Source: Pachysolen tannophilus NRRL Y-2460 (Eukaryota). From it: a DNA stretch of 64,000 nucleotides. Each line of letters starts with the position of its first letter. The first letter of the stretch is position 1. The translations under genes and the position numbers were made by a program. Positions 1,740 through 38,343 of this stretch are shown here, piece by piece. The stretch spans positions 585,498-649,497 of the forward strand of contig KV454011.1 of the NCBI GenBank assembly GCA_001661245.1, read 5' to 3'. The notes under the pieces are model-generated. The model was not told the origin of the DNA and made no database searches. It saw only the letters and a list, made by a program, of their open reading frames with translations.

Positions 1740-1740
1740 A

Positions 1741-5118: not shown

Positions 5119-5946
5119 CTATTCATGATCGTTATATTTCAGTCTAATTGACCGTCTATCAATATCCTTGTAGTCTCTTTTTTCCTTATTAATCATTTTA
5201 TCCGAAGAATGATGAGTACTTCCATCTTCGTTATGTCTACGTGACGACGATTGATAGTGACGACTTCGATCATGATCATGACTATCACTATCAACCTGAC
5301 GATTGTGACGATGACGGTGGTGGTGGTGACGATGAATTTGGGGACTGCTCTTCTCTTCAACATCTTTAGACTCATTAAAAGTTTTAATTTTTTCTTCATT
5401 CAATGACGATGAAACCTCATCATTTGTGTTCAGTTTTTTTTCCTTTTTCACCAACTCTCCACAAGTCTCAATATATACTTTATCAATTGGTCTATCTCTA
5501 TCATCTACCTTTATACACGAAGACCATTCAATCAAATAATTTAGGTTCTTCACTACTCTTCCAATTATTGTATAGTTGTAATTTAGAGATGATAAATTAT
5601 CCAGTAAAGTTATGAAAAATTCAGTTGACTTGACCAGATCGTCATTAGTAGCTATTGCCAATAAACCTTTCTTTCCATATTGGAATTCCGTATTGAACTT
5701 GTCAAACTCCCCTTTATCAAAAATTGTGAGATCAGCAGGACCATCTTTGAGCGTCCCTCCTTGAATGATAAATTCTGGAGATATTACTCTAGATATCATT
5801 GCACCTTTATAAGTTATTGTCGACGACGACGAACAAAATTTATGAAATTTGGAAACTGAAATTGGATACTTGTCATTGAAAAGTTCCACTATTACCGTCA
5901 CCGAAGAAGAATCAGAATCTGTCTTAAAAGTTAAGAAGATTCGCAT
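5119..5946 (-). CDS. Divergent cyclophilin-type PPIase with His/Arg/Ser-rich C-terminal tail
   Basis: VELFNDKYP, YKG..ISRVI..FIIQGG, EFFITL, YTIIGRVV, DRPIDKVYIETCGEL cyclophilin motifs followed by a basic low-complexity tail. Confidence 0.8.
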   Translation of the reverse strand: MRIFLTFKTDSDSSSVTVIVELFNDKYPISVSKFHKFCSSSSTITYKGAMISRVISPEFIIQGGTLKDGPADLTIFDKGEFDKFNTEFQYGKKGLLAIATNDDLVKSTEFFITLLDNLSSLNYNYTIIGRVVKNLNYLIEWSSCIKVDDRDRPIDKVYIETCGELVKKEKKLNTNDEVSSSLNEEKIKTFNESKDVEEKSSPQIHRHHHHRHRHNRQVDSDSHDHDRSRHYQSSSRRHNEDGSTHHSSDKMINKEKRDYKDIDRRSIRLKYNDHE

Positions 5947-6092
5947 GTTAGTCTGTTATCTTTCAATAATACTGTTTGTAATTAAGTAAAGATAACATGT
6001 ACTTTTGTAGATAAAAAAAAAATAAATAAAAATAAAGCAAAAAATACCATGTTTTTATAGATAAATATATAAATCAAGAGAATAGGATAAAT

Positions 6093-7532
6093 ATGGACAG
6101 AACCACTAGGATACAGGACTATGAGTTGGAGAATTCGTTGCTAGACTTCTACTTCAACTCAATATTTTCATCTACTAATAGTAGTAATAAGCTATTTACT
6201 AGGAAGGAGTTGATGAATTTAATGATTAATTATGAAAGAAGTTACTACTCGAATCATATGTGTTGTACTGGAACGGTATCATCAATTGATGCTGAAAGTT
6301 TGAATATCTTGAACAGGGATAGCACCACCTATGTTGATATTCAAGGTTTAAGTTGGAATGATCCTGAACAAAGAGCAAATATTTTTAACAAGAGATCATT
6401 GTTTTTCAAAAGTTATACAAATTTTGAAAATTCTATAGAGATGTCATCTCATAATTGTACAAGATTACTGAATAGCAATAACGAGTATTGGTATTTTAAT
6501 AAGTTTTTCATAATACCCAACATGTATTTAAATCATTTTCAACTTCGAAATTTAGTAGCTTTTAATGAATTGAATGAGATCATATATGTTGAAAATAAGC
6601 TTAATCAAGTTGTTGGTAGTAGCGATTTTAATGTCAAAAGATTGAATCCTATAAATTCCAAGCAAGAAGTAATTTTTGCTTCAAATGATTTTTCTAATGA
6701 TTATGGGGATGAAGAATCTTTAAAAGTTTCTACTTTGAATTCATATAAAGATTTGGTTATAAGTGGGTTGTACAATGGTACAATTATAATTCATAATAAA
6801 GGTTCAGATTTAACGCTCAAGCATACTTTGACAACAAATCCTCAAGCGATAACAAATTTTATTGATATAAATTCGCAAGATAATGAATTACTTATATCTT
6901 CAAATGATGGGAAATTAAGGTTTTTTTCACTTTCTGTTTTAAAGACTTCAAGAGAAATAGATCTGGAAAACCCAATAAATTGTTTAACCAAAAATCCTTT
7001 AAATTATAATCAAATATTGCTAGCAGGGGATAGGCCAGAGTCTGTTATAATTGATAAGAGAAGCAACCGTGATTGTCTTGAGTTGACAGGGCATAGAGAC
7101 TATTCATTTTCATGTGATTGGAATCCAAATGGATATTTGGTGGCTACTGGAAATCAGGACAGTACGGTAAAGTTATATGATCTAAGGTATTTATCCAAAA
7201 ATAAAGAAGATGATAATAGCTTGAAAACTCTTGGAGGGAAATTGAAAGGAGCAGTAAGAAACTTAAAATTCGATTTGGATGGGAATTTTTTAGCATTTGG
7301 AGAAAGTTTAGATAACGTTTATTGTATTAATTTACAAGAAAATGAACTTAACTATCAATCGATAAATTTCATTGGAAAGATAACAGGCTTAAATTTCATA
7401 AGAAATCAAAACAATTTTGGTCAATTATTAAGCATAGGTATAAGTGATGAGTGCACTGGTGGCATCTTACAATATGCTTTCGAAAGTAGTAGTAAAGTGA
7501 TCGATTTATATAATGACGGCGAGTTCATTTAA
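6093..7532 (+). CDS. WD40-repeat protein (uncharacterised fungal HFQLRNL-type family)
   Basis: GHRDYSFSCDWNPNGYLVATGNQDSTVKLYDLR WD repeat; N-terminal HFQLRNLV motif. Confidence 0.8.
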   Translation: MDRTTRIQDYELENSLLDFYFNSIFSSTNSSNKLFTRKELMNLMINYERSYYSNHMCCTGTVSSIDAESLNILNRDSTTYVDIQGLSWNDPEQRANIFNKRSLFFKSYTNFENSIEMSSHNCTRLLNSNNEYWYFNKFFIIPNMYLNHFQLRNLVAFNELNEIIYVENKLNQVVGSSDFNVKRLNPINSKQEVIFASNDFSNDYGDEESLKVSTLNSYKDLVISGLYNGTIIIHNKGSDLTLKHTLTTNPQAITNFIDINSQDNELLISSNDGKLRFFSLSVLKTSREIDLENPINCLTKNPLNYNQILLAGDRPESVIIDKRSNRDCLELTGHRDYSFSCDWNPNGYLVATGNQDSTVKLYDLRYLSKNKEDDNSLKTLGGKLKGAVRNLKFDLDGNFLAFGESLDNVYCINLQENELNYQSINFIGKITGLNFIRNQNNFGQLLSIGISDECTGGILQYAFESSSKVIDLYNDGEFI

Positions 7533-7900
7533 ACTGGAATTAAGTAAAATTCTCTTTTTTTTTCATATATATAGATATATAGCTAATAGCTATCTGGGTT
7601 TAACGGTATAACGACTTGAAATCTTATCAACATAATATTCAACAACTCTAGTCTCTTCCTACTTAAGATGATCGGCAGAATGCTACCAGTAAAGAGTTCT
7701 TCTGGAACATCGAAGTATCCAACCACATCTTCAATTATTGAGACAATTTTGCCGGATTCGGTAAATTGAAGTGTAAAAAAATTATATAAGAATCTTTTAT
7801 TAATAATGTTCTTATTTAAATGATGATTAATTATTAATTTTATTTGAAGAGGAATTGCTATCTATTACTTTTGAATAGTATTTCTAGGATTTTAATAAAA

Positions 7901-8221
7901 ATGGCTGATCATCAATACCAATTCGATGTAACAATGTCCTGTTCAGGTATGTATAAAAGATATTTGGAAGCTGAATTCTTTACTTATTTTTCAAGATTTT
8001 TCTATAATATAATAATACTAACTAGAAATTTATATATAATAGGTTGTTCAAATGCGGTCAATAGGGTCTTGAACAAGTTACAAGGTGTTAAGAAAGTGGA
8101 TATTTCTTTGGAAAAACAGTCCGTTGACGTTGTAACTGATTCAAATACAACTTATGATGATGTTTATAAAGCCATAAGTAAGACTGGTAAGAAGGTTAAC
8201 AGTGGTCAAACTATTGTTTAG
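7901..8221 (+). CDS. ATX1: Copper chaperone Atx1; exons 7901-7946 and 8043-8221
   Basis: Intron 7947-8042 (GTATGT, TACTAAC 8016-8022, TAG); splicing restores YQFDVTMSCSGCSNAVNRVL and the C-terminal KTGK of the HMA domain. Confidence 0.95.
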   Translation: MADHQYQFDVTMSCSGMYKRYLEAEFFTYFSRFFYNIIILTRNLYIIGCSNAVNRVLNKLQGVKKVDISLEKQSVDVVTDSNTTYDDVYKAISKTGKKVNSGQTIV

Positions 8222-8398
8222 GTTTAAATTCATGGTTTAATATTTTTTAGTTAATCTAGGTTTTATGAAGTAACTAAGTTTAATAATGAAACTTTTTTTT
8301 TTTTTGTTTTTTGGTTTTTGATTTTATCACCTTTTAAGTGAAAGCTATATACAAATTAATAAGAAGGTGAGTGAGACTCCTACAAATATTTCACTTAA

Positions 8399-9748
8399 TT
8401 AACGTCTTTCGTTAAAAATAGCACTTTCAGTAGCTAAACCCAAGGATTTTTTATAATCGGCAACATTTTCCAATCTTCTCTTTCTACCTATTTCACCTGC
8501 TTTTGATAAGACTCCAATGACCAAATTTGTGGCTCTAATACTATCATCATTACAAGGAATAGGATATGTTAGTAAACTTGGTTCTGAATCTGTATCAACC
8601 AATCCGATTGTAGGTATTCTAGATTGGATTGCTTCTCTGATACAGTTTCTATTTTCTATTGGGTTCAAGATGACTATTAAATCAGGTTTAATTAAAGAAT
8701 CCAATTCTGCAGGTTCTAATTCTCTTTGTGTTGGTTTATCTTCCATATCAAGTTCATGTCTTGGCCAAATACCATTAATCTCCGTACAATTTGTAATACT
8801 TCCTGGAATCCATCTATTTGAAACATAATACCCATTTGTTCTCTTTGCTGCTTGTTCTAATGATTTTTTTTGGCCTTCTCTAGTTCCTAAAAATAAAATC
8901 AACCCACCTCTTTCAGCAATACCTTCAACAACTTTTGCAGCTCTTTTTAAATATGTTAATGTTTGTTCCAAATCAATAATATGTATACCTTTATATTCAC
9001 CATATATAAATGGTTGAGTAGAAGGTCTCCATAAAGATGTGGAATGTCCTAAATGACAACCTGCAGAAAGTAAAGTCTGAATAGACAATTTTGAAGGTTT
9101 AACAGGTTTTAAAACATCTTCATGAGGTAAATAGACATCTTCAATTTGAGAACCAAGTTTGGCCATATGTTTTGAATGCTGATGTTGACGAACAAATAAT
9201 TCTTGTTTTGAATATGGTCTATCCATAGGTGTAGAAACTAAATATGGAAATTTCCCCTTTGATGAAGAACCTGTTGTATAAGATGATGAAGAAATTGTAG
9301 AAATCATAGTATCATCTTCTTTAATTTCCCTCTTTGTGAAAAATTCTTGAAGAAAAGTTTCAAACTCATCTTCTAAATTCTGCCTCTTTGTAGGATCAAT
9401 TTTTTGTTCTGATATCATTCGATTAACATCTTGTTTTGAAAATTTTTCAACTTCCTCCAAATGTTTTATAGCAACTTCGTTTAATAACTTCATTCTTTCA
9501 ATCTCATATTCAATTTCCGACGAAGATCTCAACGAAGAATTGGAGCCAGAACTAGACACATCCAAAGAAACTGATTCTTGACCTTGTACTTGCTCATCCA
9601 CTGCAGCTGATGGAGATTTTGTGTCTTCATTTTCCTCGACTACCACTGAGGATTTGGTACTGTTGTTGAATCTTACAAAAGTCGGCCTCATATAATGACG
9701 CACAGAACCATATGCCCTCATCTTTGGTACAAAATTTCTCGGAAACAT
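8399..9748 (-). CDS. MRP4: Mitochondrial ribosomal protein uS2m
   Basis: [53 protein letters not shown]2 signatures; Arg-rich presequence; first ATG at 9748. Confidence 0.93.
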
Positions 9749-9904
9749 CACCGCCCTATGAATCTATCTATACTATCTATATGAATATGAATGATTCCTC
9801 TTTAACTTATTTTTATTCAACTAACTCGTCCAAGAGACTTTTGAAAATTTTTGAATTTTTGAATTTTTTTTTTTTTTTGGTGAACAAAATTGAAAAATTC
9901 AATT

Positions 9905-9913
9905 GTCACGTGA
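9905..9913. promoter_or_regulatory. Cbf1-type bHLH site in the divergent promoter
   Basis: GTCACGTGA between MRP4 and the 10023 ORF. Confidence 0.45.
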
Positions 9914-10022
9914 AAGTTTTTTTTCACCAAAAATCCAAAATCACCAAATGGTGCAAAGTTGGCAGTTCAAACAGTTGATGAACTGGAGGAGTTGTAGTTT
10001 CAGTTGATGTAGGAGGAGGAGA

Positions 10023-10583
10023 ATGGTGATGGTAATTGAGAGCTGTAGTAGCTTTGAGTCGTTTGTATCAGATTTTGTTTGTTCTGAAGATTTTGTGCCT
10101 ACTGTTATTTTGGTTTTTGGTAATGGTGATAGTGATAATGATTTCAATAGGGATGAAGAGGGAAGATTGAAATTGAGCAATGTTAGAGAGATTACGAATT
10201 TTTCCAAGATAACTATAATCACAGTTGATAGTCCAAAGAAATGTGAAAATATATTGGTTTATCTCAATTGTATTTCTTCAGCAAGGAGAATTTTATTTTT
10301 CAATTTTTTATCTAGCTTTATTAATCAGGATGGTGTTATTCCCATTAAATGTTTAAACATACGGTTTCTATCGACGATTTTGAATTTTTTCCAGAAACAG
10401 AATAGAGGTGGGTTTTTAGTGGAAAGTTATAAGCCATCGTTTTATCAAGACCATTATTTGCCTGTGAGACAGTACGTTGATCCCGATTTGTTTGCAAAGG
10501 AAAATGAGAATGAAGCATTACGAGATAAGGAATGGTTTGAAATGTATAAATATTTAATTAAACTGGGGTATGAATTCCGATGA
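10023..10583 (+). CDS. Hypothetical alpha/beta protein, possibly Shu1-like
   Basis: 186-aa ORF divergent from MRP4 with alternating strand/helix pattern; weak motif-order resemblance to Shu1 (see findings). Confidence 0.6.
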   Translation: MVMVIESCSSFESFVSDFVCSEDFVPTVILVFGNGDSDNDFNRDEEGRLKLSNVREITNFSKITIITVDSPKKCENILVYLNCISSARRILFFNFLSSFINQDGVIPIKCLNIRFLSTILNFFQKQNRGGFLVESYKPSFYQDHYLPVRQYVDPDLFAKENENEALRDKEWFEMYKYLIKLGYEFR

Positions 10584-10700
10584 TAATTGAAATTCCTACA
10601 TTCATGGCTATAGTTCAATCTAGATTAAAATTTTAAAAAAATGAAGAAAGAAAGAAAAAAAAAATCCCCCCTTGCAAAGAAGAGAGAAAAAAAAAGCCAG

Positions 10701-11230
10701 TTAGTTCTTCTTATTCTTATTATTTTTCCTAGCATTCTTCTTTCTAGCATTATTGTTCCTTTTTTTATTTGGTACATTATTATTGTTGTTATTGTTATTA
10801 TTGTTATTAGTCTTGTCCGTACTGTCGTTGGTCTTTTCATTTGAGAAATCGACTGAGACTTCACATCCGTCACCTCCATTTTCAACTTCACTTATCTCTG
10901 TTGATTTATTACTTTCATCTAGTTTTATTTGTGCTGATGAGTTTTCAGTATCGTCATCATTTTGAGTCTCATCCTGTGATGCCTCTGCTGTTGATGGTAT
11001 TACTTTTGGTGACTGTCCCTCTTGTTCAGTTGTTGCTGGTTTCAGAGAAATTGGCTTGTCACCTTGGACTTTCTCTTCTGGCTCAGGACTTTGGGAAGTA
11101 GCGGGAACTATCGATTTTCTTTTATTCCCATGACTGAAATTTCTTCTTTGCTGATTGCCACTTGGTGATCTGCTGTCAACACGCGGCGAGGAAAACTTTC
11201 TGCTGTGTTCATTGTACGAAGATTTTCTTC

Positions 11231-11270
<40 letters not shown>

Positions 11271-12338
11271 TGCATTTGATTTTCTTGGAGTTTCGGTTTC
11301 GTTGTTTCTTACTTTTGCAACGTTCAATGTTTGAATATTATTATCAGGATTATCAGTATTTTGTGCTTCTACTGTTTTTGCACTAGCAACATTTACTGTT
11401 TCTGTTGTTGGTGTTGGGTTTTTTTTACTATTAGCATTTGAACCACTCAGTGAATCCAAACGTGATTGTTTTGGTTTCACTTCTGGTTGTTGTGATAAAT
11501 TTGTAGGCAATGTCAATTCATTTGGAGGTGCTGGTGAATATTTCAGTTCTCCATTATTATTATTATTATCAAAATTTGGTAGTCCCCTATTAGCGATTTT
11601 TAATACTTCTTCACATTCATTTAAAATAATAACAGTTTTAGTTCCATGTTCTTTTGTAGCCATTGCTAAAGTCTTTAACAGTTCCACTATAGAACTATTT
11701 TTTTTCTGGTATAAAATTTCTAATTTACTTGATTTATTAACAATTTTATTATAATTGCTTATTATTTCATCATTATTATTTTTAAATTTAGCAAAATTTT
11801 TATTCATTTTTTCTTCTTTATCATATAACAGTTTTTTCAAAAATTCTAATTCATTATCATAATAAAGTTTCAATTCTTTTTGAGATTGTACTAAACAATC
11901 ATAAGATGTTTTTAAACTTTCATTTTCCCTTTGATACTTATTTTCACTTTCTTCTAAATTTTTTAATTTTAAAACCAGACCTTTTTCCTTATATTCTAAA
12001 TCTGAAATTTTTGTCAAACAATTATTCAACTGTTCTTCTAAATCTTTAACTCTACGGTTCTTACTTGCTAGTATCGAATTGATCATTTCATTTTCATGTC
12101 TCGTATTAGTCAAATTTTCAATTGTCTGTCCCGATCTTTTCAATAATGTTTGATATTTTTTTTCATACTCCTTGCTTTCATTTTTCGAAACGTCCAACAA
12201 ATGTTTTAACTCATCTATCTCGGTATGTAATTGATCAATTACTCTTGAAGATGGACCCGTCTGAGGTTTCATATATTTTGAAGGTGATTGAACATTATTA
12301 TTCAAATTAACCATTGGCGAATTCTCCTTATCACTCAT
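10701..12338 (-). CDS. SHE3: She3-like myosin/mRNA transport adaptor
   Basis: SRVIDQLHTEIDEL and ENEMINSILASKNRRVKDLE match the She3 N-terminal coiled coil; Asn/Ser-rich disordered C-terminal half. Confidence 0.75.
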
Positions 12339-14536: not shown

Positions 14537-14866
14537 CACGCACTGAGAAAAGCTAAAGAAAAAAAACAAAAAAAAAAAAAAGAACCTCCTACTACTAATT
14601 ATTTGATATTGATTGATATTAATGAAAATAACAATTCTTCGATAAAAAGTTCAATATGTTGAAAAAAATAAGAAAAAAAAAAATGCAAAAAATTGAAAGA
14701 AAAACAGGTCGTTCCGCTAAAGCTCAAAAGTCCTAAATAGGAAACTGGTTTTATGAGTTGTGATATCAGGTTCTAAGCTGGAGTAAAACTTTTGTAGTTG
14801 AATTTATTTGCAAAAAGAATTGAATAGAATAGAATAGAATTATCTTATTGGAAGTTTAGTTGGGAG

Positions 14867-17020
14867 ATGAATTCGATATATAATAATCTTCAGCCTTCTG
14901 CTCTGAATTCGTTTTTGCCGTCGTCGTTGGTGAATAATGAGGAAGATATAGTAGTGCGGCCGCTGTTGGACTATTTTATAATATTTAAAGATGAAGATGA
15001 AGACGAAAATGAAGAAGATGGTGCTAGTGAAGATAATACGATATTGAGTTATATTAAATTTGGCGATTCAGAGCAACTTGGGAGTGATGGTAGTGCCAGT
15101 GTATTGGATAATGGTGTGCGATCCAAAATTGGGTTGGTTAAAGGGTTGAATGAGTTTAGCGGTAAATTCGATCAAATATCTGGGAAAAGTAATATTAAAT
15201 TTATAGATACTGAAAGGCAGCGGATATTAATTAATTTGGTTTCAGAATCTAGTAGCAATTTTTATTTGTGTTTATGTATTAATGTTGGTAAAATAATTGA
15301 AAAAAAAACTTCTAAAATTATATATTCACTGAAAAATTTATCAAATTCAAATTATTTAATACAAGAAATGATTAAATGTTACAAAATATTTACTTTAAAT
15401 TATGGAAGTTTTGATTATAATTTAAAAAGTTTATCTTTAAAAGAATTTCGGAAATTATTGAATAATTGGTTTAAATATTATTTGGAAAATAATTTCCTGT
15501 CATCTTTTAATTTATCATCAAAAGGTTTTTTAAATTTATTTAATAAAGATTTTTATAAATCAAGTTCATCTTTATTATCATTAGGTTCTGAAAAAACTTT
15601 GAATTTATACCTTTCAAAAATTTTTTGTCAAAATGAATTTTTATTAGAATTTTTCATAACTGAAAATGGATTAAAATCTGAAAATAATGGGTTAATTTAT
15701 AAATACTCAATGATAAATAAAGATGATGATAATATTAAAAAAAATCAAATTTCACAAGATTCAATAATAGATTTACTTAATTATATTGAAGAAATTGAAA
15801 TTAAATATGGGTTAGATAAGATAATTTTGAAAAATTTACCACCTTCAACTCATCAGGAACAGCATCAACAACAAAGATTAGAAGAATTAAGAATGCATGC
15901 AACAAATATTGCAACCACATATATAACTGATCCTTTAACTCAAATAGTTTATGCTCCTATTAATGCTGTGAATAACTTTAGCGAATATTTACCAACTTGG
16001 AAATTATGGGGGGATAGTAGTAATAATGATAACGATAATAATAACGTTCATGATAATAATACCAATCAAATATCCAATGAAGAACATTTTTCAAATAATA
16101 CTGGTATTGACAATGTGGTAGTTAATTCAGAAATTGATAAAGGTCGTTTCATTGTTGGATATAGCAAGACTTTAGAAAACGTAGAAGATGAAACATTGAA
16201 TATAATATCCAAGATAATTTATTTAAATAGTAATGATCAAAAAAATGCAGTGAATGAATGTAAATTAGTTGTTTACAACATAATGAATTTTAATATTTTT
16301 TTAATTTACAAATCAGATTATCCATTGTTGAATGAAGTGAATTTTTATCAAGATTTGAAAAAATTTTTATATGAAGATGTTTATAAATTACATTTGCAAA
16401 AAATTAATAATATTACTACTAATAAAATTTCTCCTAATATTAGCAATAATGAAAATGTGGTAATTAATATTTCCTCATCAGAACCATTTTATTACATATT
16501 AATTGATGAAAATGGGAAAACTTATCAAACTTCTTTACCGTACATTTTAGAGCATAACAAGAATGATGAATTAGATAAATCTAACAAATCACAATTAATG
16601 CATGTTCATAATAATTTAATTTCATTTTATATGAGTTTGAAATCAAATAATGAACAAGTCAATGATGATGAAGTTTTAGTTAAAAGTTTCCGAAACTGGT
16701 GGTTTTTTTATAAAAAATTTGATTCAAATAATGATAAATTTTTTAAAAATAAGAAATTAATTATATTGAAAAAAACTAATCATACTAGTAAAAATGATGA
16801 TATTAAAAGATTATTTACTACACCAAATTCAAGGAAATTATTATTTACTAAAAATGATCATGTTAAACGTCATAATAAAACAACTGATAATAATAATTTT
16901 TACAATGATAATCAAGAAGATTTAAAAAATGAAAATAGTGATTTTTTGAATTTTTTACAAAATTTAGGAGAAGATGTATGGGAATGGTACCTTCAATATA
17001 AGAATGAAGGAATCTTATAG
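14867..17020 (+). CDS. CCZ1: Ccz1, vacuolar fusion/Ypt7 GEF subunit
   Basis: N-terminal longin-like segment (DYFIIF, SKIGLVKGLNEFSGKF, CYKIFTLNYGSF) and C-terminal LGEDVWEW. Confidence 0.7.
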   Translation: MNSIYNNLQPSALNSFLPSSLVNNEEDIVVRPLLDYFIIFKDEDEDENEEDGASEDNTILSYIKFGDSEQLGSDGSASVLDNGVRSKIGLVKGLNEFSGKFDQISGKSNIKFIDTERQRILINLVSESSSNFYLCLCINVGKIIEKKTSKIIYSLKNLSNSNYLIQEMIKCYKIFTLNYGSFDYNLKSLSLKEFRKLLNNWFKYYLENNFLSSFNLSSKGFLNLFNKDFYKSSSSLLSLGSEKTLNLYLSKIFCQNEFLLEFFITENGLKSENNGLIYKYSMINKDDDNIKKNQISQDSIIDLLNYIEEIEIKYGLDKIILKNLPPSTHQEQHQQQRLEELRMHATNIATTYITDPLTQIVYAPINAVNNFSEYLPTWKLWGDSSNNDNDNNNVHDNNTNQISNEEHFSNNTGIDNVVVNSEIDKGRFIVGYSKTLENVEDETLNIISKIIYLNSNDQKNAVNECKLVVYNIMNFNIFLIYKSDYPLLNEVNFYQDLKKFLYEDVYKLHLQKINNITTNKISPNISNNENVVINISSSEPFYYILIDENGKTYQTSLPYILEHNKNDELDKSNKSQLMHVHNNLISFYMSLKSNNEQVNDDEVLVKSFRNWWFFYKKFDSNNDKFFKNKKLIILKKTNHTSKNDDIKRLFTTPNSRKLLFTKNDHVKRHNKTTDNNNFYNDNQEDLKNENSDFLNFLQNLGEDVWEWYLQYKNEGIL

Positions 17021-17981: not shown

Positions 17982-18032
<51 letters not shown>

Positions 18033-18034
18033 AC

Positions 18035-18462
18035 NNNNNNNNNNNNNNNNNNNNNNNNNNNNNNNNNNNNNNNNNNNNNNNNNNNNNNNNNNNNNNNNNN
18101 NNNNNNNNNNNNNNNNNNNNNNNNNNNNNNNNNNNNNNNNNNNNNNNNNNNNNNNNNNNNNNNNNNNNNNNNNNNNNNNNNNNNNNNNNNNNNNNNNNNN
18201 NNNNNNNNNNNNNNNNNNNNNNNNNNNNNNNNNNNNNNNNNNNNNNNNNNNNNNNNNNNNNNNNNNNNNNNNNNNNNNNNNNNNNNNNNNNNNNNNNNNN
18301 NNNNNNNNNNNNNNNNNNNNNNNNNNNNNNNNNNNNNNNNNNNNNNNNNNNNNNNNNNNNNNNNNNNNNNNNNNNNNNNNNNNNNNNNNNNNNNNNNNNN
18401 NNNNNNNNNNNNNNNNNNNNNNNNNNNNNNNNNNNNNNNNNNNNNNNNNNNNNNNNNNNNNN
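18035..18462. other. Assembly gap (N run)
   Basis: Run of N preceded by adjacent long poly-T and poly-A tracts. Confidence 1.
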
Positions 18463-19231
18463 AAAAAAAACTGAACATCCTTCTTTCTTTTTTACCTTTT
18501 AAGCAAGGGTTCTTTGTTATTTGTTTAAAAAAAAAATTGATTGCTACAAGTATGAAATTGCAGTTTCATAAAAGCGCAAAAATAAAAAAAAAAAAGGATT
18601 TTTAACCATAGAAATGAATTAATTTTTAATTAAATTAAAAATAATGTTATTAGATGATACGCCATTTCGTCATTAGCCAAAATTTGGTAATAAAAAGAAC
18701 GTGAGTGAGAATATAGTAGCAAAATAATACAAATTACAATACACTAGAATTAAGTAAAAGCGCTTAAGCGCCATTCGTTTTTCTTTAAATTTTTCTATCA
18801 AAATTTCAATTTTGCTATTACTTTATTATATTTCAAGGTTTATTAAATTACGTCTATCATTCTTTATTTCTCTCTCTCTCTCTTTCTCTCTTTCTCTCTT
18901 TCTTTCTTTGTTTCTCTTTACAATTTTATCTTCATTTATTCTTATTTATAATAGAAGTGTATAGAAGGTAAAAGATAAAGATAAGAGAAAAGAAATTTTT
19001 CGTAATCTTTGTCACTTATCTTTTTTTTACAAGTCGATCGATATCCTCATGCATTGTGGTTTCACCACAACTAGGCATCGGCACCTTGTCCACTATAAAT
19101 AAACATAGATATCCCAAGTCTTGTTAAATCTTATTGTTGTTTATTATAATCATAATATATATATTATATATATATATAATATATATTTATTTATTTGTTT
19201 TGTTTTTGTTGGGGGAAAAAAAAGAGAGAAA

Positions 19232-26349: not shown

Positions 26350-28017
<1,668 letters not shown>

Positions 28018-28035
28018 TTATATAATGATTAATTA

Positions 28036-29311: not shown

Positions 29312-31129
29312 TTAAACAATAAATGAAGGTTTTTCATTTGCTGGTGTAGCAGCAATTGTTTCCAACCTATTTACATGACTTTGACCCTCTTGTGAACCAG
29401 GAGCAACATCAATAGCACCACTATTCCATTCTTCTAATTCCTTTTTATGTTCCCTTTCAATAGCATATTTTACCAGCTCCAATACATTTTCACAAATATG
29501 TTTTGGTTTATATTTGGGTATAGCACCATCTTTATAAACACCAGTTTTAACCAAGATAGAATGCCATGATTCATCATGAGAATTTGCAAATCTAATATCT
29601 GATTCAGGAGTATCACCAACAAAATAAACTGTTGAAGCAGGAGGTAAATCCAAAGTTAATTGTGATAATTTTTGAACTGTTAATGCTTCATCACCATCTT
29701 CATCTTCTGATTCAGAATCAGAAGCTCCAAATACTGGTCTATTTTTAGGATCTATTTCTAATTCTTCTTCTTCATTTTCTGGAGTTAATTTTTCAACATG
29801 ATCTTCCAAGACATCTTTTCTCCACAGACTTAAAACTTTATTTGCATACTTAAAAGTACCTCTTTGTGGTTTACCAAATCTAGTAACAACTAATTCTTTA
29901 CCTGTATGTTCTCTATATAATGCAGCAATAGATACTTGTAAAGCTCCCATACCATATCTTGAAAGTTTATAATTTGTAGCCCAAACAAAATCAGAATGAG
30001 CAAAATATAAACCTGGACCTTCATCAAAAGTTTCAGAACGTGTACCCATAACACCTTTTTTACTTAATAATAAATCCAAAATAATTTGTTGATCAGTTGC
30101 CCAATCTCTTGAATCTGCAAAAACTAATATAGCATCAATTGAAATTTTACTAAAATCAACATCTTTTCTAACAACTTTTTTCTCTTCTTCAGTTAAAGTA
30201 TGATATGGAGCAACACTTGGATTCCAATACATAATATCCAAAGGTATATAAACATTTTTAAAACCATAGTCAATGGCTACTTTTCTACAAGCATCACCAA
30301 CACCACCAACAACAAGAACATTCTTGTAAACATCAATTAAATCTTTCATTGGTGTATGACCTTGAATAATCTGCTCAGGAGTAACTTCAATACCTAATCT
30401 TTGAGACAAATCTTTAGCTCTAGCTTCTTCTGGTCTACCACCACCATTTGTAACAAAAATATATGGTACTTTAATGTTATATTTATTTTGACCATTTAAC
30501 ATTTTCAAAGCTTCTTTAGCTTCAGGAATTGTGTCCGGTCCACGAACAATAACACCATCAATATCAAATGCAAAAGCATACGAAGCAACTCTTTCATGGT
30601 CAATTATATTTTTTTTAAATCTCATCGATAATGAAGGTCTTCTAGAAGATCTATTACTACTACCAGCACCAAAGGAAACTCTTGATCCACTATTCTTTAA
30701 ATTAGTCGATGAAGATTTTGTAGAATTCATACCTGAAAGCAGCACAGAAGAATTCCATTGATCAGATAATGATAAATTCGAAACTTGCTTTTTCCTCAGT
30801 AATGGTTGTAAACTATCAATTCCATCGTTATTCAAATAAGAATAACCAGGTTGAGAAGGATCTATCACAGGCGTCGACTTATTTGTATTACCTTCACCAA
30901 CATCATTACTCGAGGAAGAATGCACAGTTTTTTTCTCCTCTTCTTTCTCCTTCTTCTCAATTTTAGAATCACCAACTTTATCACTAGTATTAATCGGCGG
31001 CTCTTTTGAAAACATATTAGTCGGGTTATTTGTATTAACAGTACCCGTAGTACCCGTAGCACCTGAACCACCCACGGCGCTTGAAACACCGGCACTATTC
31101 TTTGTAGTTATATCTGATTTACCTGACAT
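29312..31129 (-). CDS. HAD-superfamily IIA hydrolase, CECR5/HDHD5 (YKR070W-like) family
   Basis: FAFDIDGV, FVTNGGG, FGKP, FVGDTPESDI, SILVKTGVY motifs; long disordered N-terminal extension. Confidence 0.9.
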   Translation of the reverse strand: MSGKSDITTKNSAGVSSAVGGSGATGTTGTVNTNNPTNMFSKEPPINTSDKVGDSKIEKKEKEEEKKTVHSSSSNDVGEGNTNKSTPVIDPSQPGYSYLNNDGIDSLQPLLRKKQVSNLSLSDQWNSSVLLSGMNSTKSSSTNLKNSGSRVSFGAGSSNRSSRRPSLSMRFKKNIIDHERVASYAFAFDIDGVIVRGPDTIPEAKEALKMLNGQNKYNIKVPYIFVTNGGGRPEEARAKDLSQRLGIEVTPEQIIQGHTPMKDLIDVYKNVLVVGGVGDACRKVAIDYGFKNVYIPLDIMYWNPSVAPYHTLTEEEKKVVRKDVDFSKISIDAILVFADSRDWATDQQIILDLLLSKKGVMGTRSETFDEGPGLYFAHSDFVWATNYKLSRYGMGALQVSIAALYREHTGKELVVTRFGKPQRGTFKYANKVLSLWRKDVLEDHVEKLTPENEEEELEIDPKNRPVFGASDSESEDEDGDEALTVQKLSQLTLDLPPASTVYFVGDTPESDIRFANSHDESWHSILVKTGVYKDGAIPKYKPKHICENVLELVKYAIEREHKKELEEWNSGAIDVAPGSQEGQSHVNRLETIAATPANEKPSFIV

Positions 31130-31500
31130 TTTTGTGTATATTAAATATTTTTTTATAAATTATTGTTTTTTTGTATTATACTCTTATCCTAATTAAAAGA
31201 TTATCAGCAGAGCGAAATCGACCCTACTTTTATATGGTTTCTGAACGCACATAAATAAAATAATTATTTTTTGATACGGAATGCACTAGCGAAAAATTTA
31301 GAGCCAAAAAGAATTTATTATGATGACGTAGGCATCCCACGGAAATGTTTACATCATCAATTACATAATACATACAGTATACATAATATAATATATTATA
31401 TTATATTATAATATATGACCCAGCATCCACGACTTTGTACTGGGACGCCCCTCTTTGGTCACGCGCTTTTTGCTGCAAGGGAAATGACAAGAAAATTTCT

Positions 31501-31544
31501 GGGCTTTTCCAGGGCTTTTCCAGGGCTTTTCTTGGGCTTTTCCA
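31501..31544. repeat. Four tandem 11-bp units GGGCTTTTCCA
   Basis: Copies start at 31501, 31512, 31523 (variant ...CTT) and 31534. Confidence 0.95.
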
Positions 31545-31595
31545 CCGCCCAACTTTTGCCCGGGGATCTGCCTGAGAGAGCTTCTGGAGAGCTGC

Positions 31596-34031
31596 TTACA
31601 TCTGTTCTATGGCGAAATCTAGGAGGTAACTCTGCTCAATCAAATCATCAATTCTGGTGGTATGGCGCTCGCTATACGGGATGATAGCATCTATGATACC
31701 CATTATCTTCGGGATGCTAATTAGCCTTTCACTTCTGAAGCTGATCAATAAGAATCTAATCAATTTTTGAGAAACGTTGAAAAATTTTGAATTAATGTTC
31801 CAGTCTCTAATTCTTTGGAAAAGTTTTAAGATTTGTTCATCGTTTAATGTTAAGATAGTTTTTTCCAATTCTTTAGAACCTAACGTTGATTCTTGGTCAA
31901 TATTGGACTCTATTGCAGATTTCAACACATTATAAAGTCGCATAGGATGATCCAATGTAAGCGCCAATAGGAATGCATTAGCAAAGTCATTTTCTCTCAT
32001 GTAGTTTTGTAACGATTGGTCTTGTTCTACTTTGAGTTTCGACAGCGCTTCCTGCTCTTGTAACTTTTCAGCTGTGTTGTCTTCCCAAATGGAAATTTTC
32101 CCGTCGGCATCTGCAGTGATAAACTCTTGGCCATCTGCTTTAACACATAAAGACCAAATTCTGTTGTCATGGTTGTCTAAAGTTTCAAGGCACGTGTTGG
32201 ATTTGATATCCCAAATCTTGATTAAACCTTCTGCACCAACACTCAAAAGCTGTTGATTCCTGTTGATAAAGGAAACTCTTTGTACAGAGTTTGTATGTCC
32301 TTCGAATGTCTTTGCACATGTGAAATCTTGAATTGACCATAATTTTAAAGTCTTATCACCAGACCCAGTAACAACAAGCCTATCAAACAGACAAAATTTG
32401 ATATCCCAAAGTCCACGCCTATGTCCTTTCAAGATCCCTACAACTTCACCAGAATCCAAATCCCAAATCTTACCCAATTTGTCATAACTACAAGTGGCCA
32501 AAAAATCGTTATTTGGAGATATATCCAACGAATTAATATCCTTTTCATGTGCTCTTCTTGTATATTCCGATGTCTTTACAACAATTGGAATCTTACCTGA
32601 CTTTATGTAATCAGCTAAATTAGGGATCTTCCATTTTTTTATAGTCAAATCCAGAGATGCAGTGATCAAGAAATTCGGCTGTGAAGTAACATTATTTCTA
32701 GGTAACCCACAACAAGTAACGGAACCAGCATGTCCAATAAAACGAGCAAAAATTTCAAATTTGGAATCTTCCAAATTGTATCTCCATAAGATGGCTTCAT
32801 TATCCTTACTACTTGTAGCCAACCATAAACCATCAGAAGTTGAATCTAAAGAATTCAACAAATCTTTATGACCTTCATAAAGGTCAACTTCCAATGGCTT
32901 ATTTAAAGGGTCAATTATTCTAAGTGATGGAGAATTTGTCGCAAGTGCCAACAACTTTGAATCAGGTCCAACAAATCTCATATCTGCTATTGTACCATGG
33001 TTCCCTGCAATCCTCCCACTGATTGGAATTATATTTAATTTCCCATCTTCCAAATATACATCGTTTAAATTTAGTTCACATAAGGTCTGGTCAGATAATA
33101 CCAATACCAATTTCAATTTCGATAATGCTGAATCCTCATTATCCTGTTCTTCTAATACTTGAATAACGTTAATGATTAATAATTCTTCCACAGTTTCTAA
33201 AGGTTTTGGTGAAGTGGCTACCAATTGACCATTTTCCAAATCCCAGATTTTCAATAAACAATCACCACCAGCAGTATAGAAAAACTCTCTGTCATTTATC
33301 TTGACAAAATTAGAATTCTCAATTTGATGCTTGGCAGATATACTCTTGATAACTTTGAAATTATTATTTTTACCTCCACATTTAAACAAATTTGAAATAT
33401 TATCTCTACCACCAGTTATTAAATATTCTCCAGTGGCATTGAAATTAACACCACGTACCGCAGCAGTATGTTCACTACTAATGACTTTTTCACATTTTCT
33501 TTTCACTAAGTCCCAAATCCTTACAGATCCCATTACATCACCACTAGCTAATTTCCAATTGGTAGTATTCAACTCTCCGTAGAAAGAAATGGCCGAAATG
33601 GTAGTTCCATGTCCTTTCAAAGAATGTGTCACATATCCACTCTCAATATCCCACACAGTTATAGAACCATCAGAGCCACCAAATGCAAATAAAGTGGAAG
33701 TAGGATCACAAGCTGATATATAAACTGGTGATGATAATTTAAAACTTTTCTTAAAAAGTCTTTCAGAAATATCAAATATACGTAATTGTTGAGATTGAGA
33801 AACTATTGCTAAATATCTCCCATCTGAAGATAACTGCAAACACGTAACCAATTCCCCATCACCTTCTAAATTATGTATTATTGTATTCGTCTTCGTATTG
33901 GTTATAACAATATCCTCCATAAGAGGAGTAGCCAATATTGAACCATCTCTCGATAGCGTTGCAGAACAACTTCCAACATAAAACGGTACTATATCAGTAC
34001 TCTTAAACGTGGTCTTCAAGGCAGAGCTCAT
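31596..34031 (-). CDS. UTP13: U3 snoRNP/UTP-B WD40 protein Utp13
   Basis: Multiple WD repeats (HSLKGHG, RAHEKDINSL, KGHRRGLWD, EGHTNSVQR) and Utp13 C-terminal domain (AFLLALTLDHPMRL, RDWN); first ATG 34031. Confidence 0.95.
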   Translation of the reverse strand: MSSALKTTFKSTDIVPFYVGSCSATLSRDGSILATPLMEDIVITNTKTNTIIHNLEGDGELVTCLQLSSDGRYLAIVSQSQQLRIFDISERLFKKSFKLSSPVYISACDPTSTLFAFGGSDGSITVWDIESGYVTHSLKGHGTTISAISFYGELNTTNWKLASGDVMGSVRIWDLVKRKCEKVISSEHTAAVRGVNFNATGEYLITGGRDNISNLFKCGGKNNNFKVIKSISAKHQIENSNFVKINDREFFYTAGGDCLLKIWDLENGQLVATSPKPLETVEELLIINVIQVLEEQDNEDSALSKLKLVLVLSDQTLCELNLNDVYLEDGKLNIIPISGRIAGNHGTIADMRFVGPDSKLLALATNSPSLRIIDPLNKPLEVDLYEGHKDLLNSLDSTSDGLWLATSSKDNEAILWRYNLEDSKFEIFARFIGHAGSVTCCGLPRNNVTSQPNFLITASLDLTIKKWKIPNLADYIKSGKIPIVVKTSEYTRRAHEKDINSLDISPNNDFLATCSYDKLGKIWDLDSGEVVGILKGHRRGLWDIKFCLFDRLVVTGSGDKTLKLWSIQDFTCAKTFEGHTNSVQRVSFINRNQQLLSVGAEGLIKIWDIKSNTCLETLDNHDNRIWSLCVKADGQEFITADADGKISIWEDNTAEKLQEQEALSKLKVEQDQSLQNYMRENDFANAFLLALTLDHPMRLYNVLKSAIESNIDQESTLGSKELEKTILTLNDEQILKLFQRIRDWNINSKFFNVSQKLIRFLLISFRSERLISIPKIMGIIDAIIPYSERHTTRIDDLIEQSYLLDFAIEQM

Positions 34032-34125
34032 TATATCCAACCTTTACCTTTAATATCTTTTAATTTTTTTTTTAAAAAAAAGAATATATTCTATAGTTTC
34101 TTCTGTCTATCTATTATTTAATACC

Positions 34126-34187
34126 TGAAAAATTTTTTTTTTTATTTTTTTTTAATTTTTTTCATTTACAAATTTTCAACTCATCGC
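34126..34187. promoter_or_regulatory. RRPE and PAC ribosome-biogenesis elements of UTP13
   Basis: TGAAAAATTTT at 34126-34136, second AAATTTTCA near 34170-34178, CTCATCGC (GCGATGAG) at 34180-34187. Confidence 0.85.
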
Positions 34188-34344
34188 TGCTTACATAATT
34201 TCATATAAAATATAATATATTTAAAAAACGACGACAACAACGATTAGCTATAACCAACAACGAATATATATATGTGTATATAGATATATAGGTATGTACA
34301 AGATCAAATACTGATTTCTATTAGCTATGAATAATGGTTGGTTT

Positions 34345-36102
34345 TTAACCAGCAAGAATGTCTTGGTTCTTGTCGATTTCAACTCCAAAACTATTGGCAA
34401 CATAAACTAATTGGTCTTCTAAAATATCCTCTGAACCTTTACTATTCTTATCGTTAAATATTCTATTCATGATAATTTGCTTCAGTTTAATGATATAAAA
34501 AATCAAACTTGAGATTTGTAGTACCACATGAACAACTAAATAATTGTACAGCCTTCTTAACAAAGTTATTCTAGTACTTTTATTACCTAGTGGGCCTTCA
34601 TTTAAGGCAATAAAGTTTTTAATTGCTTCATTACCCAATATGTTGATTCTGTTACATGGAGATCCAAATTTTTGGTTTAAAGCTTGCATCATTCTCATAG
34701 TTTTACCTAAAAAGATTAAACTCAAGGGAAATTTATCTGTATTTTCGAAAAAATTTAAAAATCGATTTTTTATGATATTATTTCTTTCAAATTCAGAGAG
34801 ATCATGTTCTTTTTCACTTGTTATCTCTTCAAAATTGTCGGATCTAAATCTCTTCATCATAACCATAGAAGAAAATAAATCTGGAGAACCAATACCCCAA
34901 CTTGAAACAATTCGTTTAACTTCTTCCATATCAAATTCGATTAAAGATTTCCATAATAAGCAATAATTTTTCCTAAAATTTGTATCTAATTTGATATACA
35001 ATCCATGATCCAAGATAACCAATTGCTGTTTACCATCAACAAATCTTACCAAAAAATTCCCAGGGTGAGGATCACAATGAATAAGACCCCATTTGAAAAT
35101 TTGTTTTGAGTATAAAACTAACATATTTTTCATTATATTTTGAAGACTAAATCCCTTTCTTTCTAATTCATCAGGATGAATCAAAGAAGTACCATCTATA
35201 AATTCACAAACTAAAACTTTCTTTGTAGATATTTCTGGGTGCAGTACAGGAACATACACTTTACCCGCCAAGTCATCATGTTGTAATAAATTTTGCATTT
35301 CCAAACTATTCTTTAATTCATTTTCAAAATTAGTTTCTTCTGAAACTTTTTTAGAAACATAAGCAGTAATAAAATCTAAAGGCATATCAAACAAATAACC
35401 ATAAATCTTCATCATGAATCTATAAGTAAATAAATCAATATTAACTTGTTTTGGAATGGCATCGTGCTGAACTTTAATAGCAACTACTTCACCATTCTTT
35501 AAAACACCCTTGTGAACTTGAGCAATACTAGCACTAGCAAATGGATCTTCATCAATATGAGAAAAAATTGTTTCATAATAATCAGAACCTAATTCTGATT
35601 CTAAAGTTTTATTCACAATAGACCATTCATCTTTTGGTGCATTATCAAACAAAAGATTAAATTTTTGTTGGTAAACTTTTGGAAATAAAGTCAGCTGCAT
35701 AGCAATTGTTTGGCCAAGCTTAATATAAAGCCCTTTGTTTGTCGATAAAAGGTCAAACAATTTGTTTGCATTCGACTGATTCAACAGATCAACATCAGAT
35801 TCTTCAGTAAACCTAAACTTATAATCTATAGCAATTGACAGTAAACACACCACTGTTCTTAACGACCTCCTAAAAGCAGAGTACAAATAATATTTATCAA
35901 TAAGATAACCAACAGTTAAACCACCCAGGGATATGATTAGGAATTTGCCAAACTTACTTATGGATGGCGATTTCTGTTTGCTAAAACCATTAACTCCTGA
36001 TGAGAAAAAATTCACCCTTTGATAAGGTTTTAAAAACACAAATTCATGAGTTAACCTCGAAGGCCTTAACAAAGCTCGATTTAACAAGCCATTCTTAATC
36101 AT
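34345..36102 (-). CDS. ABC1/ADCK atypical kinase, mitochondrial (Mcp2/Cqd2-like)
   Basis: YIKLGQ, ASASIAQVH, VAIKVQH, HCDPHPGN, ILDHGLY motifs; presequence plus TM segment; first ATG 36102. Confidence 0.9.
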   Translation of the reverse strand: MIKNGLLNRALLRPSRLTHEFVFLKPYQRVNFFSSGVNGFSKQKSPSISKFGKFLIISLGGLTVGYLIDKYYLYSAFRRSLRTVVCLLSIAIDYKFRFTEESDVDLLNQSNANKLFDLLSTNKGLYIKLGQTIAMQLTLFPKVYQQKFNLLFDNAPKDEWSIVNKTLESELGSDYYETIFSHIDEDPFASASIAQVHKGVLKNGEVVAIKVQHDAIPKQVNIDLFTYRFMMKIYGYLFDMPLDFITAYVSKKVSEETNFENELKNSLEMQNLLQHDDLAGKVYVPVLHPEISTKKVLVCEFIDGTSLIHPDELERKGFSLQNIMKNMLVLYSKQIFKWGLIHCDPHPGNFLVRFVDGKQQLVILDHGLYIKLDTNFRKNYCLLWKSLIEFDMEEVKRIVSSWGIGSPDLFSSMVMMKRFRSDNFEEITSEKEHDLSEFERNNIIKNRFLNFFENTDKFPLSLIFLGKTMRMMQALNQKFGSPCNRINILGNEAIKNFIALNEGPLGNKSTRITLLRRLYNYLVVHVVLQISSLIFYIIKLKQIIMNRIFNDKNSKGSEDILEDQLVYVANSFGVEIDKNQDILAG

Positions 36103-36563
36103 ATCCACTTTTAAAACCTATTTTAAAACAAGAAAACTTGATATTTCTCAACATTTAAATATATAATTTCGTTAAAATCCATAAACTCCATTTACTACAG
36201 CGTTGGTCAGTGCATTATCGCGCACAGAGTTACGTGAATTGAAAAATTATAATAAATACCAAAATCATAAAGACTGCTACAAAGTTGGCAATCTACTAAT
36301 ACAAGCAATATGGAACCATTGCTTATGGAGTCTCTTTGAATGATAGAGAGCTGGATTCTATGTACAAGATTTATTTCAAAAAAATACAAAAAGAAAATAC
36401 TTTATACAGGAGGAATACATAGAAAAAAAAAAATGATCAAAACAATAATACCGTATTAGTTTAGATAACTATTCGAATGGCGAAATGGCAATTGGGCCTG
36501 AAGAGGGTGCCTGAACTTGTTTATATACATGAACATGAGTTTTTTTTTTGAACTTGTAAGGAT

Positions 36564-37271
36564 TTAATCCTCAATTATGCCCCAAGCTTCCGATGGTGGA
36601 ATGTTTGTGGCAATCTTGGTAATTTCTAATTGCAGAATGTTTTCACGCCATTGTTCGAGTACTGGAAATTTTTCCATGCTAATTTTTGAAAACTTGTGAC
36701 GGTTTACCCATGGCCAAGTGGTGAAATCTGCGAGAGTCAATTTATTTCCGACAAGATAACCTGTACCATTTTTTTTCAATTGACCTTCCAAGACGTTGTA
36801 AACTCTATTGACTTCATCGGTATATCTCACGATGCAATATGGGATATTCTCGGGACAAAGACGTAAGAAATAAAGTAAATTAGTTTGATTTGGTCCCAAA
36901 TTTGCCATTTGGAAGAAAATCCAAACTAATTCTTCATAATAATGAGGATCAGAAGCTGCATAATGGTACTTGAAATCTTTATCAAACTTATCAGCCAAGT
37001 ATATTAAGATAGCAGCAGATTCGAAAACCAGATCAATGATTTCTCCATCTTTACCAACGTTTAGCAATACCGGGATCTTACCATTTGGATTCAATTTTAA
37101 AAACCAATCTTGTTTCTGCTCATTTGCAAACACATCAATACGTTTAACATGGTAAGACAATCTTAAAAACTCTAAAAAAAGACTAATCTTATGACCATTT
37201 GGAGTAGGCGAGGACAACAATGTCAAACCTTCAGGAAACTTGGAAGTCTCTTTAATATAAGTAGCAGGCAT
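36564..37271 (-). CDS. Glutathione S-transferase (TPNG-type, Ure2/Nu-like), tandem paralogue A
   Basis: TPNGHK, LNPNGKIP, ESAAILIYLA, TLADFTTWPW. Confidence 0.92.
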   Translation of the reverse strand: MPATYIKETSKFPEGLTLLSSPTPNGHKISLFLEFLRLSYHVKRIDVFANEQKQDWFLKLNPNGKIPVLLNVGKDGEIIDLVFESAAILIYLADKFDKDFKYHYAASDPHYYEELVWIFFQMANLGPNQTNLLYFLRLCPENIPYCIVRYTDEVNRVYNVLEGQLKKNGTGYLVGNKLTLADFTTWPWVNRHKFSKISMEKFPVLEQWRENILQLEITKIATNIPPSEAWGIIED

Positions 37272-37653
37272 TATCCAATCTTGTTCCTTGAATAATACTA
37301 AAAGAATCCAATTATTTAACTTGGAAGAAAGGGAACTTATATACTAATCGCGAATACATAATTGCCACTTAATTACATTACAGGAATGACAATCCTATAC
37401 TCGTTTCAGTTTTTTAGACTGGAAAGTGCTGCTTAGTTTTAAAGATAAATCTTAGTTCTTCGTTAAAAAAGATGAAGTTGTTTGGTGAAAAGTTATTTAT
37501 TATGGGCAAATTCTACTATATATGAAAAACACACAAAAAAAAAAAAAAAAAAAAAACAGTGCTATGTTCTATTTTTTTTTTTGCTAATATGAGATCTACT
37601 CTGAAGCCTATAAGTAGAATCAGACCAACACCAAGTGAATTGTTTAAAAGAGC

Positions 37654-38343
37654 TTAAGCCTTTTTCGGTGGGATGGTGATGGCAATTTTGGTTGCTTCTA
37701 ATTCGGAAATTTTTTCGAACCATTTCTTGACATTTGGGAACTTGTCCAAATCAATGTGTGCAAACTCATGACGGAAAACCCATGGCCAAGTCAAGAGATC
37801 AGCTAATGAAAATTTGTTACCAACAATGTAACCAGTACCACTTCTTTTCAATTGTTCATCCAAGACACCGTAAAGTCTATTAACTTCATCGGTAAATCTC
37901 TTGATACCGTAAGGAACTTTCTCTGGAGCATAATTCAAAAAATGGTGCAACTGGCCCTGATTTGGTCCCAATGATGCCATTTGAAAGAAAATCCAACCCA
38001 ATTCTTCGTAATAATGAGGATCAGAAGCTGCATAATGGTACTTGAAATCTTTATCAAACTTATCAGCCAAGTAAATTAAGATAGCAGCAGACTCGGAAAC
38101 CAGATCAATAATTTCTCCATCTTTACCAACATTTAACAAGACAGGAATCTTACCATTTGGATTTAATTTTAAAAACCAATCTTCTTTTTGTTCATTCGAA
38201 GACAAATTAATAGATTTAACATGGTATGGCAACTTTAGCAACTCCAAGAGTAAAGTAACCTTATAACCATTCGGAGTTGGTGAGGTCAATAAAGTTAAAC
38301 CTTCTGGAAACTTGGTTGTATCACTGATATAAGTAGCAGGCAT
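37654..38343 (-). CDS. Glutathione S-transferase (TPNG-type, Ure2/Nu-like), tandem paralogue B
   Basis: TPNGYK, LNPNGKIP, WIFFQMASLGPNQGQLHHF, SLADLLTWPW. Confidence 0.93.
   Translation of the reverse strand: MPATYISDTTKFPEGLTLLTSPTPNGYKVTLLLELLKLPYHVKSINLSSNEQKEDWFLKLNPNGKIPVLLNVGKDGEIIDLVSESAAILIYLADKFDKDFKYHYAASDPHYYEELGWIFFQMASLGPNQGQLHHFLNYAPEKVPYGIKRFTDEVNRLYGVLDEQLKRSGTGYIVGNKFSLADLLTWPWVFRHEFAHIDLDKFPNVKKWFEKISELEATKIAITIPPKKA

Follow-up and report, generated by a model that had tools for sequence, protein, structure and literature searches.

CTG codons in a 64-kb window of Pachysolen tannophilus nuclear DNA: a published CUG-alanine code and what a single window shows of it

We examined the CTG codons of a 64,000-nucleotide stretch of yeast DNA (hereafter the window), for which a first-pass annotation, made from the letters alone, had proposed that CUG is read as alanine. 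The proposal was right but not new, since CTG=Ala is already known in Pachysolen tannophilus, the type organism of NCBI translation table 26, and the window is almost certainly nuclear DNA of this organism (strain NRRL Y-2460, or else an assembly identical to it) that reads CUG as alanine by that table. The reassignment was published in the type organism in 2016, and thus nothing new about the code is added here. In particular, the single tRNA(CAG) of P. tannophilus groups with alanine tRNAs, carries G3:U70 within G1GGC4 together with A73, and is without the long variable arm of leucine and serine tRNAs (Mühlhausen et al. 2016, PMC4937558). Liquid chromatography-tandem mass spectrometry (LC-MS/MS) of strain NRRL Y-2460 covered 1433 of the 16,824 CUG positions that the 5288 proteins contain, an average of about 3.2 each, and alanine was read at 97.2% of the 907 positions with full fragment-ion support; 8 of these 907 positions showed alanine plus another residue and 18 another residue, which is like the AUG control (PMC4937558). 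The first-pass annotation also held that CUG=Ala is established across Pachysolen, Nakazawaea and Peterozyma, in agreement with the "Ala clade" that an excerpt of Krassowski et al. 2018 forms from these three genera beside the Leu2 Pichiaceae (PMC5951914).

According to the literature, the ancestral tRNA-Leu(CAG) would have been lost, and CUG use would have fallen, before the codon was captured by an alanine tRNA that gained the anticodon CAG. Alanyl-tRNA synthetase would read the acceptor stem (G3:U70, A73) and not the anticodon, so that the CAG tRNA would still be charged with alanine, to be inserted at CUG. The effect on the window would be that 82 of 82 in-frame CTG codons stand for alanine.

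Two other groups of reassigned codes were compared. The codes in which CUG means serine, that of the Candida/Debaryomyces clade (Ser1, table 12) and that of Ascoidea/Saccharomycopsis (Ser2), are alike in the codon, in their budding-yeast hosts, in the use of an anticodon-CAG tRNA and in a synthetase blind to the anticodon, as given in excerpts of PMC4937558 and PMC5951914; they differ in clade, in the amino acid inserted and in where the tRNA came from. The relatives of the window proteins are Pichiaceae-like and not from the Ser clades, and serine is not enriched at the CTG columns of the window. In the mitochondria of Eremothecium, CUN codons of the Leu box are likewise read as alanine through an alanine-identity acceptor stem, but there the tRNA derives from tRNA-Thr that gained G3:U70 and not from an anticodon-mutated tRNA-Ala (PMC4937558, excerpt), and this mitochondrial case is inapplicable to the nuclear genes of the window.

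Among the genes in the window, three had public protein counterparts that could be compared codon by codon:

34345..36102, minus strand: ABC1-kinase-like gene with 7 CTG codons (59, 88, 106, 137, 287, 518, 540)
59653..62331, plus strand: SPC98 gene with 8 CTG codons (69, 266, 275, 305, 409, 650, 836, 888)
55874..59314, plus strand: FAR11 gene with 7 CTG codons (215, 227, 241, 519, 555, 775, 1140)

The public protein P0001 was identical to the ABC1 open reading frame (ORF) except for alanine at 7 of 7 CTG codons. P0121 (PACTADRAFT_47643, Pachysolen tannophilus NRRL Y-2460) had alanine at 8 of 8 CTG codons of SPC98, with one other mismatch, and P0127 (PACTADRAFT_20293, Pachysolen tannophilus NRRL Y-2460, partial) had alanine at 6 of 6 aligned CTG codons of FAR11, with no other mismatches. 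Together, the three records carry alanine at 21 of 21 aligned CTG codons, a residue that reflects the translation table chosen by the depositor and is no independent measurement. The public models are shorter than the longest window ORFs (938 aa, partial, versus 1146 aa for FAR11; 885 versus 892 aa for SPC98, with 7 gap columns). The next-best homologues were 33–45% identical, and those with names came from Kuraishia, Ogataea, Brettanomyces and Candida arabinofermentans. These matches to P. tannophilus place the window in the Pachysolen/Nakazawaea/Peterozyma clade. The support for CUG=Ala thus comes from the public proteins and from the tRNA and LC-MS/MS literature (PMC4937558), which are other grounds than the column argument of the first-pass annotation.

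In-frame CTG was counted 82 times (0.56%) in the 14,654 codons of the 26 real ORFs of the window, which also contained 717 TTA, 474 TTG, 157 CTT, 77 CTA, 26 CTC and 516 GCN codons. Four of the 26 ORFs had no CTG at all, including that of a CRC1-like carrier, and the density of about 3 CTG per ORF agrees with the published 16,824 CUG in 5288 proteins. Compared with the published table 26 system, then, the window is alike in organism (by protein identity), in its public CTG=Ala translation, in CTG density per gene and in having its CTG off conserved Leu sites. It differs in that none of 22 CTG columns is a conserved Ala column, and nothing in it is different in kind. The 2016 paper states, in the excerpt on cytoskeletal and motor proteins, that CUG lies "mainly at conserved alanine positions" (PMC4937558), from which the window differs in emphasis; we do not press this contrast, because it involves 22 sites in four genes and no close outgroup.

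The column statistics were obtained from ABC1, SPC98, FAR11 and ERG11, after masking CTG as X before the homologue search and aligning with MAFFT. The homologue sets comprised 119 sequences for ABC1, 5 for SPC98, 26 for FAR11 and 150 for ERG11, and 22 of the 25 CTG sites in these four genes, a small sample, passed the occupancy filter. The searches had returned 6 proteins for SPC98, the organism's own protein among them, and 27 for FAR11; the low number for SPC98 is probably due to low-complexity words that crowded the candidate list. The SPC98 columns rest on 5 possibly related sequences, and the statistics repeated without SPC98 gave the same outcome.

We found CTG to be no ordinary Leu codon in the window. 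The mean Leu share in homologues was 0.194 for CTG (n=22); for the codons CTT/CTC/CTA it was 0.448 (n=50, p=6e-4), and for TTA/TTG it reached 0.464 (n=260, p=2e-4). Columns with at least 50% Leu were 2 of 22 for CTG versus 23 of 50 for CTT/CTC/CTA, so CTG avoids conserved Leu positions. The deficit persisted when ABC1 and FAR11 were cut to named NCBI homologues and SPC98 was dropped (n=15 sites, p=0.0017). The Leu signal at CTG persisted in this named set as well, and mistranslated homologues outside it were therefore rejected as the sole cause of that signal. A Codetta-like per-column log-odds score, which was correct for 43 of the 47 control codons that reached n=8 (GAC, GCC, GTA and GTC were missed), gave leucine +24.5 for CTA (n=22) and +17.5 for CTT and, at similar n, alanine +18.6 for GCA and +19.7 for GCT, whereas leucine scored -8.6 at CTG. 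A substitution-spectrum classifier correctly called 497 of 500 draws of 22 sites from true Leu codons, 498 of 500 from Ala codons and 494 of 500 from Ser codons, as well as all pooled rare-codon controls. With neither of the two methods did CTG behave like the other Leu codons in these alignments, and the signal above chance is a shortage of Leu relative to true Leu codons.

The first-pass annotation had rested its proposal on alanine or another small residue at named CTG codons, and had named one counter-example in SPC98. All nine positions read CTG in frame on the coding strand:

27283..27285, minus strand: ERG11 codon 218; A in the best PDB chain
29474..29476, minus strand: codon 552 of a YKR070W-like HAD hydrolase; A in the YKR070W chains 3kc2 and 3rf6, L in a weak archaeal match
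5602..5604, minus strand: codon 115 of a cyclophilin-domain protein; V in 2 of 2 PDB cyclophilin matches
37029..37031, minus strand: glutathione S-transferase (GST) copy a codon 81; gap, S, S, S and T in 5 PDB chains, same codon in the paralogue
38101..38103, minus strand: GST copy b codon 81, aligned to the CTG of copy a
35692..35694, minus strand: ABC1 codon 137; G 94, A 12, S 11, Q 2 and Leu 0 in 119 homologues, A in public P0001
13313..13315, minus strand: SRP54 codon 408; D in the three best PDB SRP54 chains
14963..14965, plus strand: codon 33 of a CCZ1-like ORF, in frame; this ORF had no Pfam match at 1e-5 and no PDB match
60877..60879, plus strand: SPC98 codon 409; L in the best and S in the second PDB Spc98 chain, M 3, I 1 and Q 1 in 5 database homologues

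The PDB chains were assigned to organisms that we take to be their sources, except for YKR070W, which is written in the molecule name. Several of the proposed examples held: alanine at ERG11 218 and HAD 552, mostly glycine at ABC1 137, and serine or threonine at GST 81, where two of the three S chains are near-identical YfcG forms. Others did not, namely the cyclophilin site (valine for an expected alanine) and SRP54 408 (aspartate), and the Leu counter-example in SPC98 was real. At ERG11 218, the 134 occupied homologue rows contained E 42, S 21, A 15, D 14 and K 12, with Leu outside the seven commonest residues. Further CTG codons with residues in homologues or PDB chains were the following:

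26854..26856, minus strand: ERG11 codon 361; Q in the best PDB chain, K 37, R 23, Q 20, S 11 and N 11 in homologues
26425..26427, minus strand: ERG11 codon 504; V in the best PDB chain, F 28, V 27, L 17, M 12 and I 10 in homologues
29825..29827, minus strand: HAD hydrolase codon 435; D in YKR070W
5635..5637, minus strand: cyclophilin-domain protein codon 104; D and N in two PDB matches
36633..36635, minus strand: GST copy a codon 213; TCC (Ser) in copy b, L, Q, R, R and L in PDB homologues
35839..35841, minus strand: ABC1 codon 88; L 70, S 12, I 8, G 6 and A 5 in 119 homologues, a Leu-majority column
32652..32654, minus strand: UTP13 codon 460; N and Q in two PDB Utp13 orthologues
32388..32390, minus strand: UTP13 codon 548; Q and P in the two PDB orthologues
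32043..32045, minus strand: UTP13 codon 663; K and Q in the two PDB orthologues
39030..39032, minus strand: codon 286 of an eIF3f-like MPN protein; M in PDB eIF3f chains

At the SPC98 CTG sites, the best PDB chain had I, T, S, E, L and R, and the second N, V, N, N, S, L and D. In the best PDB chains of ERG11, UTP13, HAD and SPC98 combined, 14 CTG sites corresponded to alanine twice, leucine once and other residues 11 times. The examples of the first-pass annotation are a selected subset: its coordinates and several of its examples stood, and its general rule that CTG columns hold alanine or small residues failed at the 22 sites. There, the A/G/S/T share was 0.220 versus 0.210 +/- 0.059 at sites drawn at random from the same genes (P=0.41) and the Ala share 0.049 versus 0.043 (P=0.33). 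The Leu share was 0.194 versus 0.117 (P=0.07), and the share of leucine, isoleucine, valine and methionine (LIVM) was 0.397 versus 0.269 (P=0.05). CTG codons thus appear to sit at weakly constrained, random-like sites and not at conserved Ala or Leu sites.

A number of window results weigh against alanine, and we gather them here. The Ala share was 0.049 at CTG versus 0.327 at GCN codons (p=0.002), and columns with at least 50% Ala were 0 of 22 versus 20 of 63, leaving ERG11 218 and HAD 552 as single supporting sites. The Leu share was in turn higher at CTG than at GCN (0.194 versus 0.034, p=0.0016), and Leu was the commonest residue in 5 of the 22 columns. No amino acid scored positively at CTG in the Codetta-like analysis (L -8.6, S -9.5, A -18.9, with alanine below both), and in the substitution spectrum, scored against the top residue valine (0), alanine came out at -4.65, behind M (-0.06), T (-1.1), I (-1.48), L (-1.51) and S (-2.16); neither method assigned the codon to any amino acid. 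To these are added the leucine of the best PDB chain at SPC98 409, the depositor's choice of table behind the public records, and GST codon 213, with CTG in copy a and Ser (TCC) in copy b. The last comparison is uninformative, because the two codons differ at three bases.

Serine is the amino acid of CUG in the Candida (Ser1) and Ascoidea/Saccharomycopsis (Ser2) clades, and both window-only scores put it above alanine (-9.5 versus -18.9; -2.16 versus -4.65). GST codon 81 aligns with S/S/S/T, the TCC of GST copy b lies opposite a CTG of copy a, many CTG columns hold polar residues, and Pachysolen itself was first put under a Ser code in a 2014 conservation study (PMC4986446, excerpt). Nevertheless, we consider serine decoding extremely unlikely. 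The Ser share was 0.053 at CTG versus 0.287 at Ser codons (p=3e-5), with at least 50% Ser in 0 of 22 columns and hence no CTG at a conserved Ser position in this set; the public records carry alanine, and mass spectrometry of P. tannophilus found alanine at 97.2% of 907 positions and its tRNA(CAG) is of the alanine type (PMC4937558). The protein matches of the window are moreover to P. tannophilus, a member of the Ala clade in the excerpt of PMC5951914, and not to a Ser clade. The caution of the first-pass annotation that serine was not fully excluded is correct for the window-only evidence, in which Ala and Ser are not separable.

Under the standard code, CTG would be a rare Leu codon confined to weakly conserved sites of an AT-rich genome. 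Rarity could be invoked since some other rare G/C-ending codons also score poorly (e.g. GCC, n=13, A -8.7); set against this, all pooled rare-codon controls were classified correctly, and CTT/CTC/CTA and TTA/TTG were clearly Leu in the same alignments (0.448 and 0.464; p=6e-4 and 2e-4). Leucine nominally has the top Codetta-like score (-8.6), an elevated share over random sites (0.194 versus 0.117, P=0.07), 5 of 22 columns in which it is commonest and the best PDB chain at SPC98 409, whereas it is found in 0 of 119 homologues at ABC1 137. Given also the identity of the organism and its published proteomics (PMC4937558), we give the standard code hardly any chance. Dual decoding as partly Ala and partly Leu, which has a precedent in the stochastic Ser/Leu mixture of Ascoidea asiatica (PMC6041473, excerpt) and would suit the lean of CTG columns to Leu and aliphatic residues (LIVM 0.397 versus 0.269 at random sites, P=0.05), is just as improbable, as the Leu lean over random sites is not significant (P=0.07) and only 8 of 907 positions showed alanine plus another residue and 18 another residue, like the AUG control (PMC4937558).

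With alanine thus retained as the reading of CUG, the standard-table translation of the window is wrong at 82 codons, as the first-pass annotation had said of its ORF translations, and table 26 is needed for annotation, homology modelling and heterologous expression. As to method, one 64-kb window is enough to set CTG apart from normal Leu codons but too little to name the amino acid that replaced leucine. The same ambiguity lay behind the early Ser assignment of Pachysolen: the 2014 study, by the authors of the 2016 paper, located none of the Pachysolen CUG codons, according to its excerpted text, where Leu or Ser is highly conserved, and assigned the Ser code (PMC4986446). Since a conservation study first led to that code, conservation evidence is weak for P. 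tannophilus.

The CUG codons of the window could be young, having arisen at tolerant sites through one-base mutations of TTG/CTN, GTG or ATG once CUG had been reassigned, an idea that we hold tentatively and rate somewhat below probable. Their location at weakly constrained sites, with a Leu share above that of GCN, fits an origin from Leu, Val or Met codons and not from Ala codons. The nearest homologues (33–45% identical, apart from two ERG11 matches at 65–68%) are too distant to resolve the ancestral residues at CTG. If the codons are young, the captured CUG would serve as a bridge over which Leu could turn into Ala in a single mutational step.

The window had 29.0% G+C and 429 N, of which 428 form a run at 18035-18462 and one stands alone at 59496; a 155-aa "ORF" at 18011-18478 on the mechanical ORF list is an artefact of this run. 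Pfam profile matches revealed an ordinary budding-yeast gene set, consisting of DSL1, the cyclophilin-domain protein, mitochondrial ribosomal protein S2, SHE3, SRP54, ERG11/CYP51, the YKR070W-like HAD hydrolase, UTP13, the ABC1 kinase-like protein, two tandem GSTs, the eIF3f-like MPN protein, an amino-acid permease, two Zn-cluster factors, a mitochondrial carrier, FAR11 and SPC98. The absence of CTG from CRC1, which the first-pass annotation had pointed out, was confirmed (0 among 27 Leu-box codons). One tRNA gene was detected by ARAGORN, whose scan of the 64-kb window found no tRNA(CAG):

53829..54689, plus strand: CRC1-like mitochondrial carrier; 0 CTG, with TTA 12, TTG 6, CTT 6, CTC 1 and CTA 2
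1665..1740, plus strand: tRNA-Val(AAC), the sole tRNA gene of the window

The tandem GSTs (36564-37271 and 37654-38343, minus strand) have the same residue in 166 of 235 alignment columns and are identical from codon 53 to codon 81, including the shared CTG; their nearest solved relatives are of the YfcG and Ure2p types. By codon frame, the 26 ORFs contained 298 CTG in frame +1 and 24 in frame +2, compared with the 82 in-frame codons, and the excess in frame +1 probably results from frequent NCT codons followed by codons starting with G. The highest CTG density of the window (8 codons) was found in a 524-aa ORF without a Pfam family (38-1612, plus strand), where the CTG codons 65, 68 and 73 fall within nine codons in a Leu-rich stretch. 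The amino-acid permease ORF (41211-42515, plus strand) has a late start, its Pfam profile being matched only from profile position 46, and a 100-aa ORF (40786-41088) lies just upstream; the cause could be a frameshift, an intron or truncation of the gene. Finally, the adjacent ORFs 47746-49356 and 49689-52793 (plus strand) contain one Zn(2)-Cys(6) domain each, at residues 23-59 (the N-terminus) in the latter and at residues 499-535 of 536 (the extreme C-terminus) in the former, a position that is unusual for the family and may indicate a gene-model problem.

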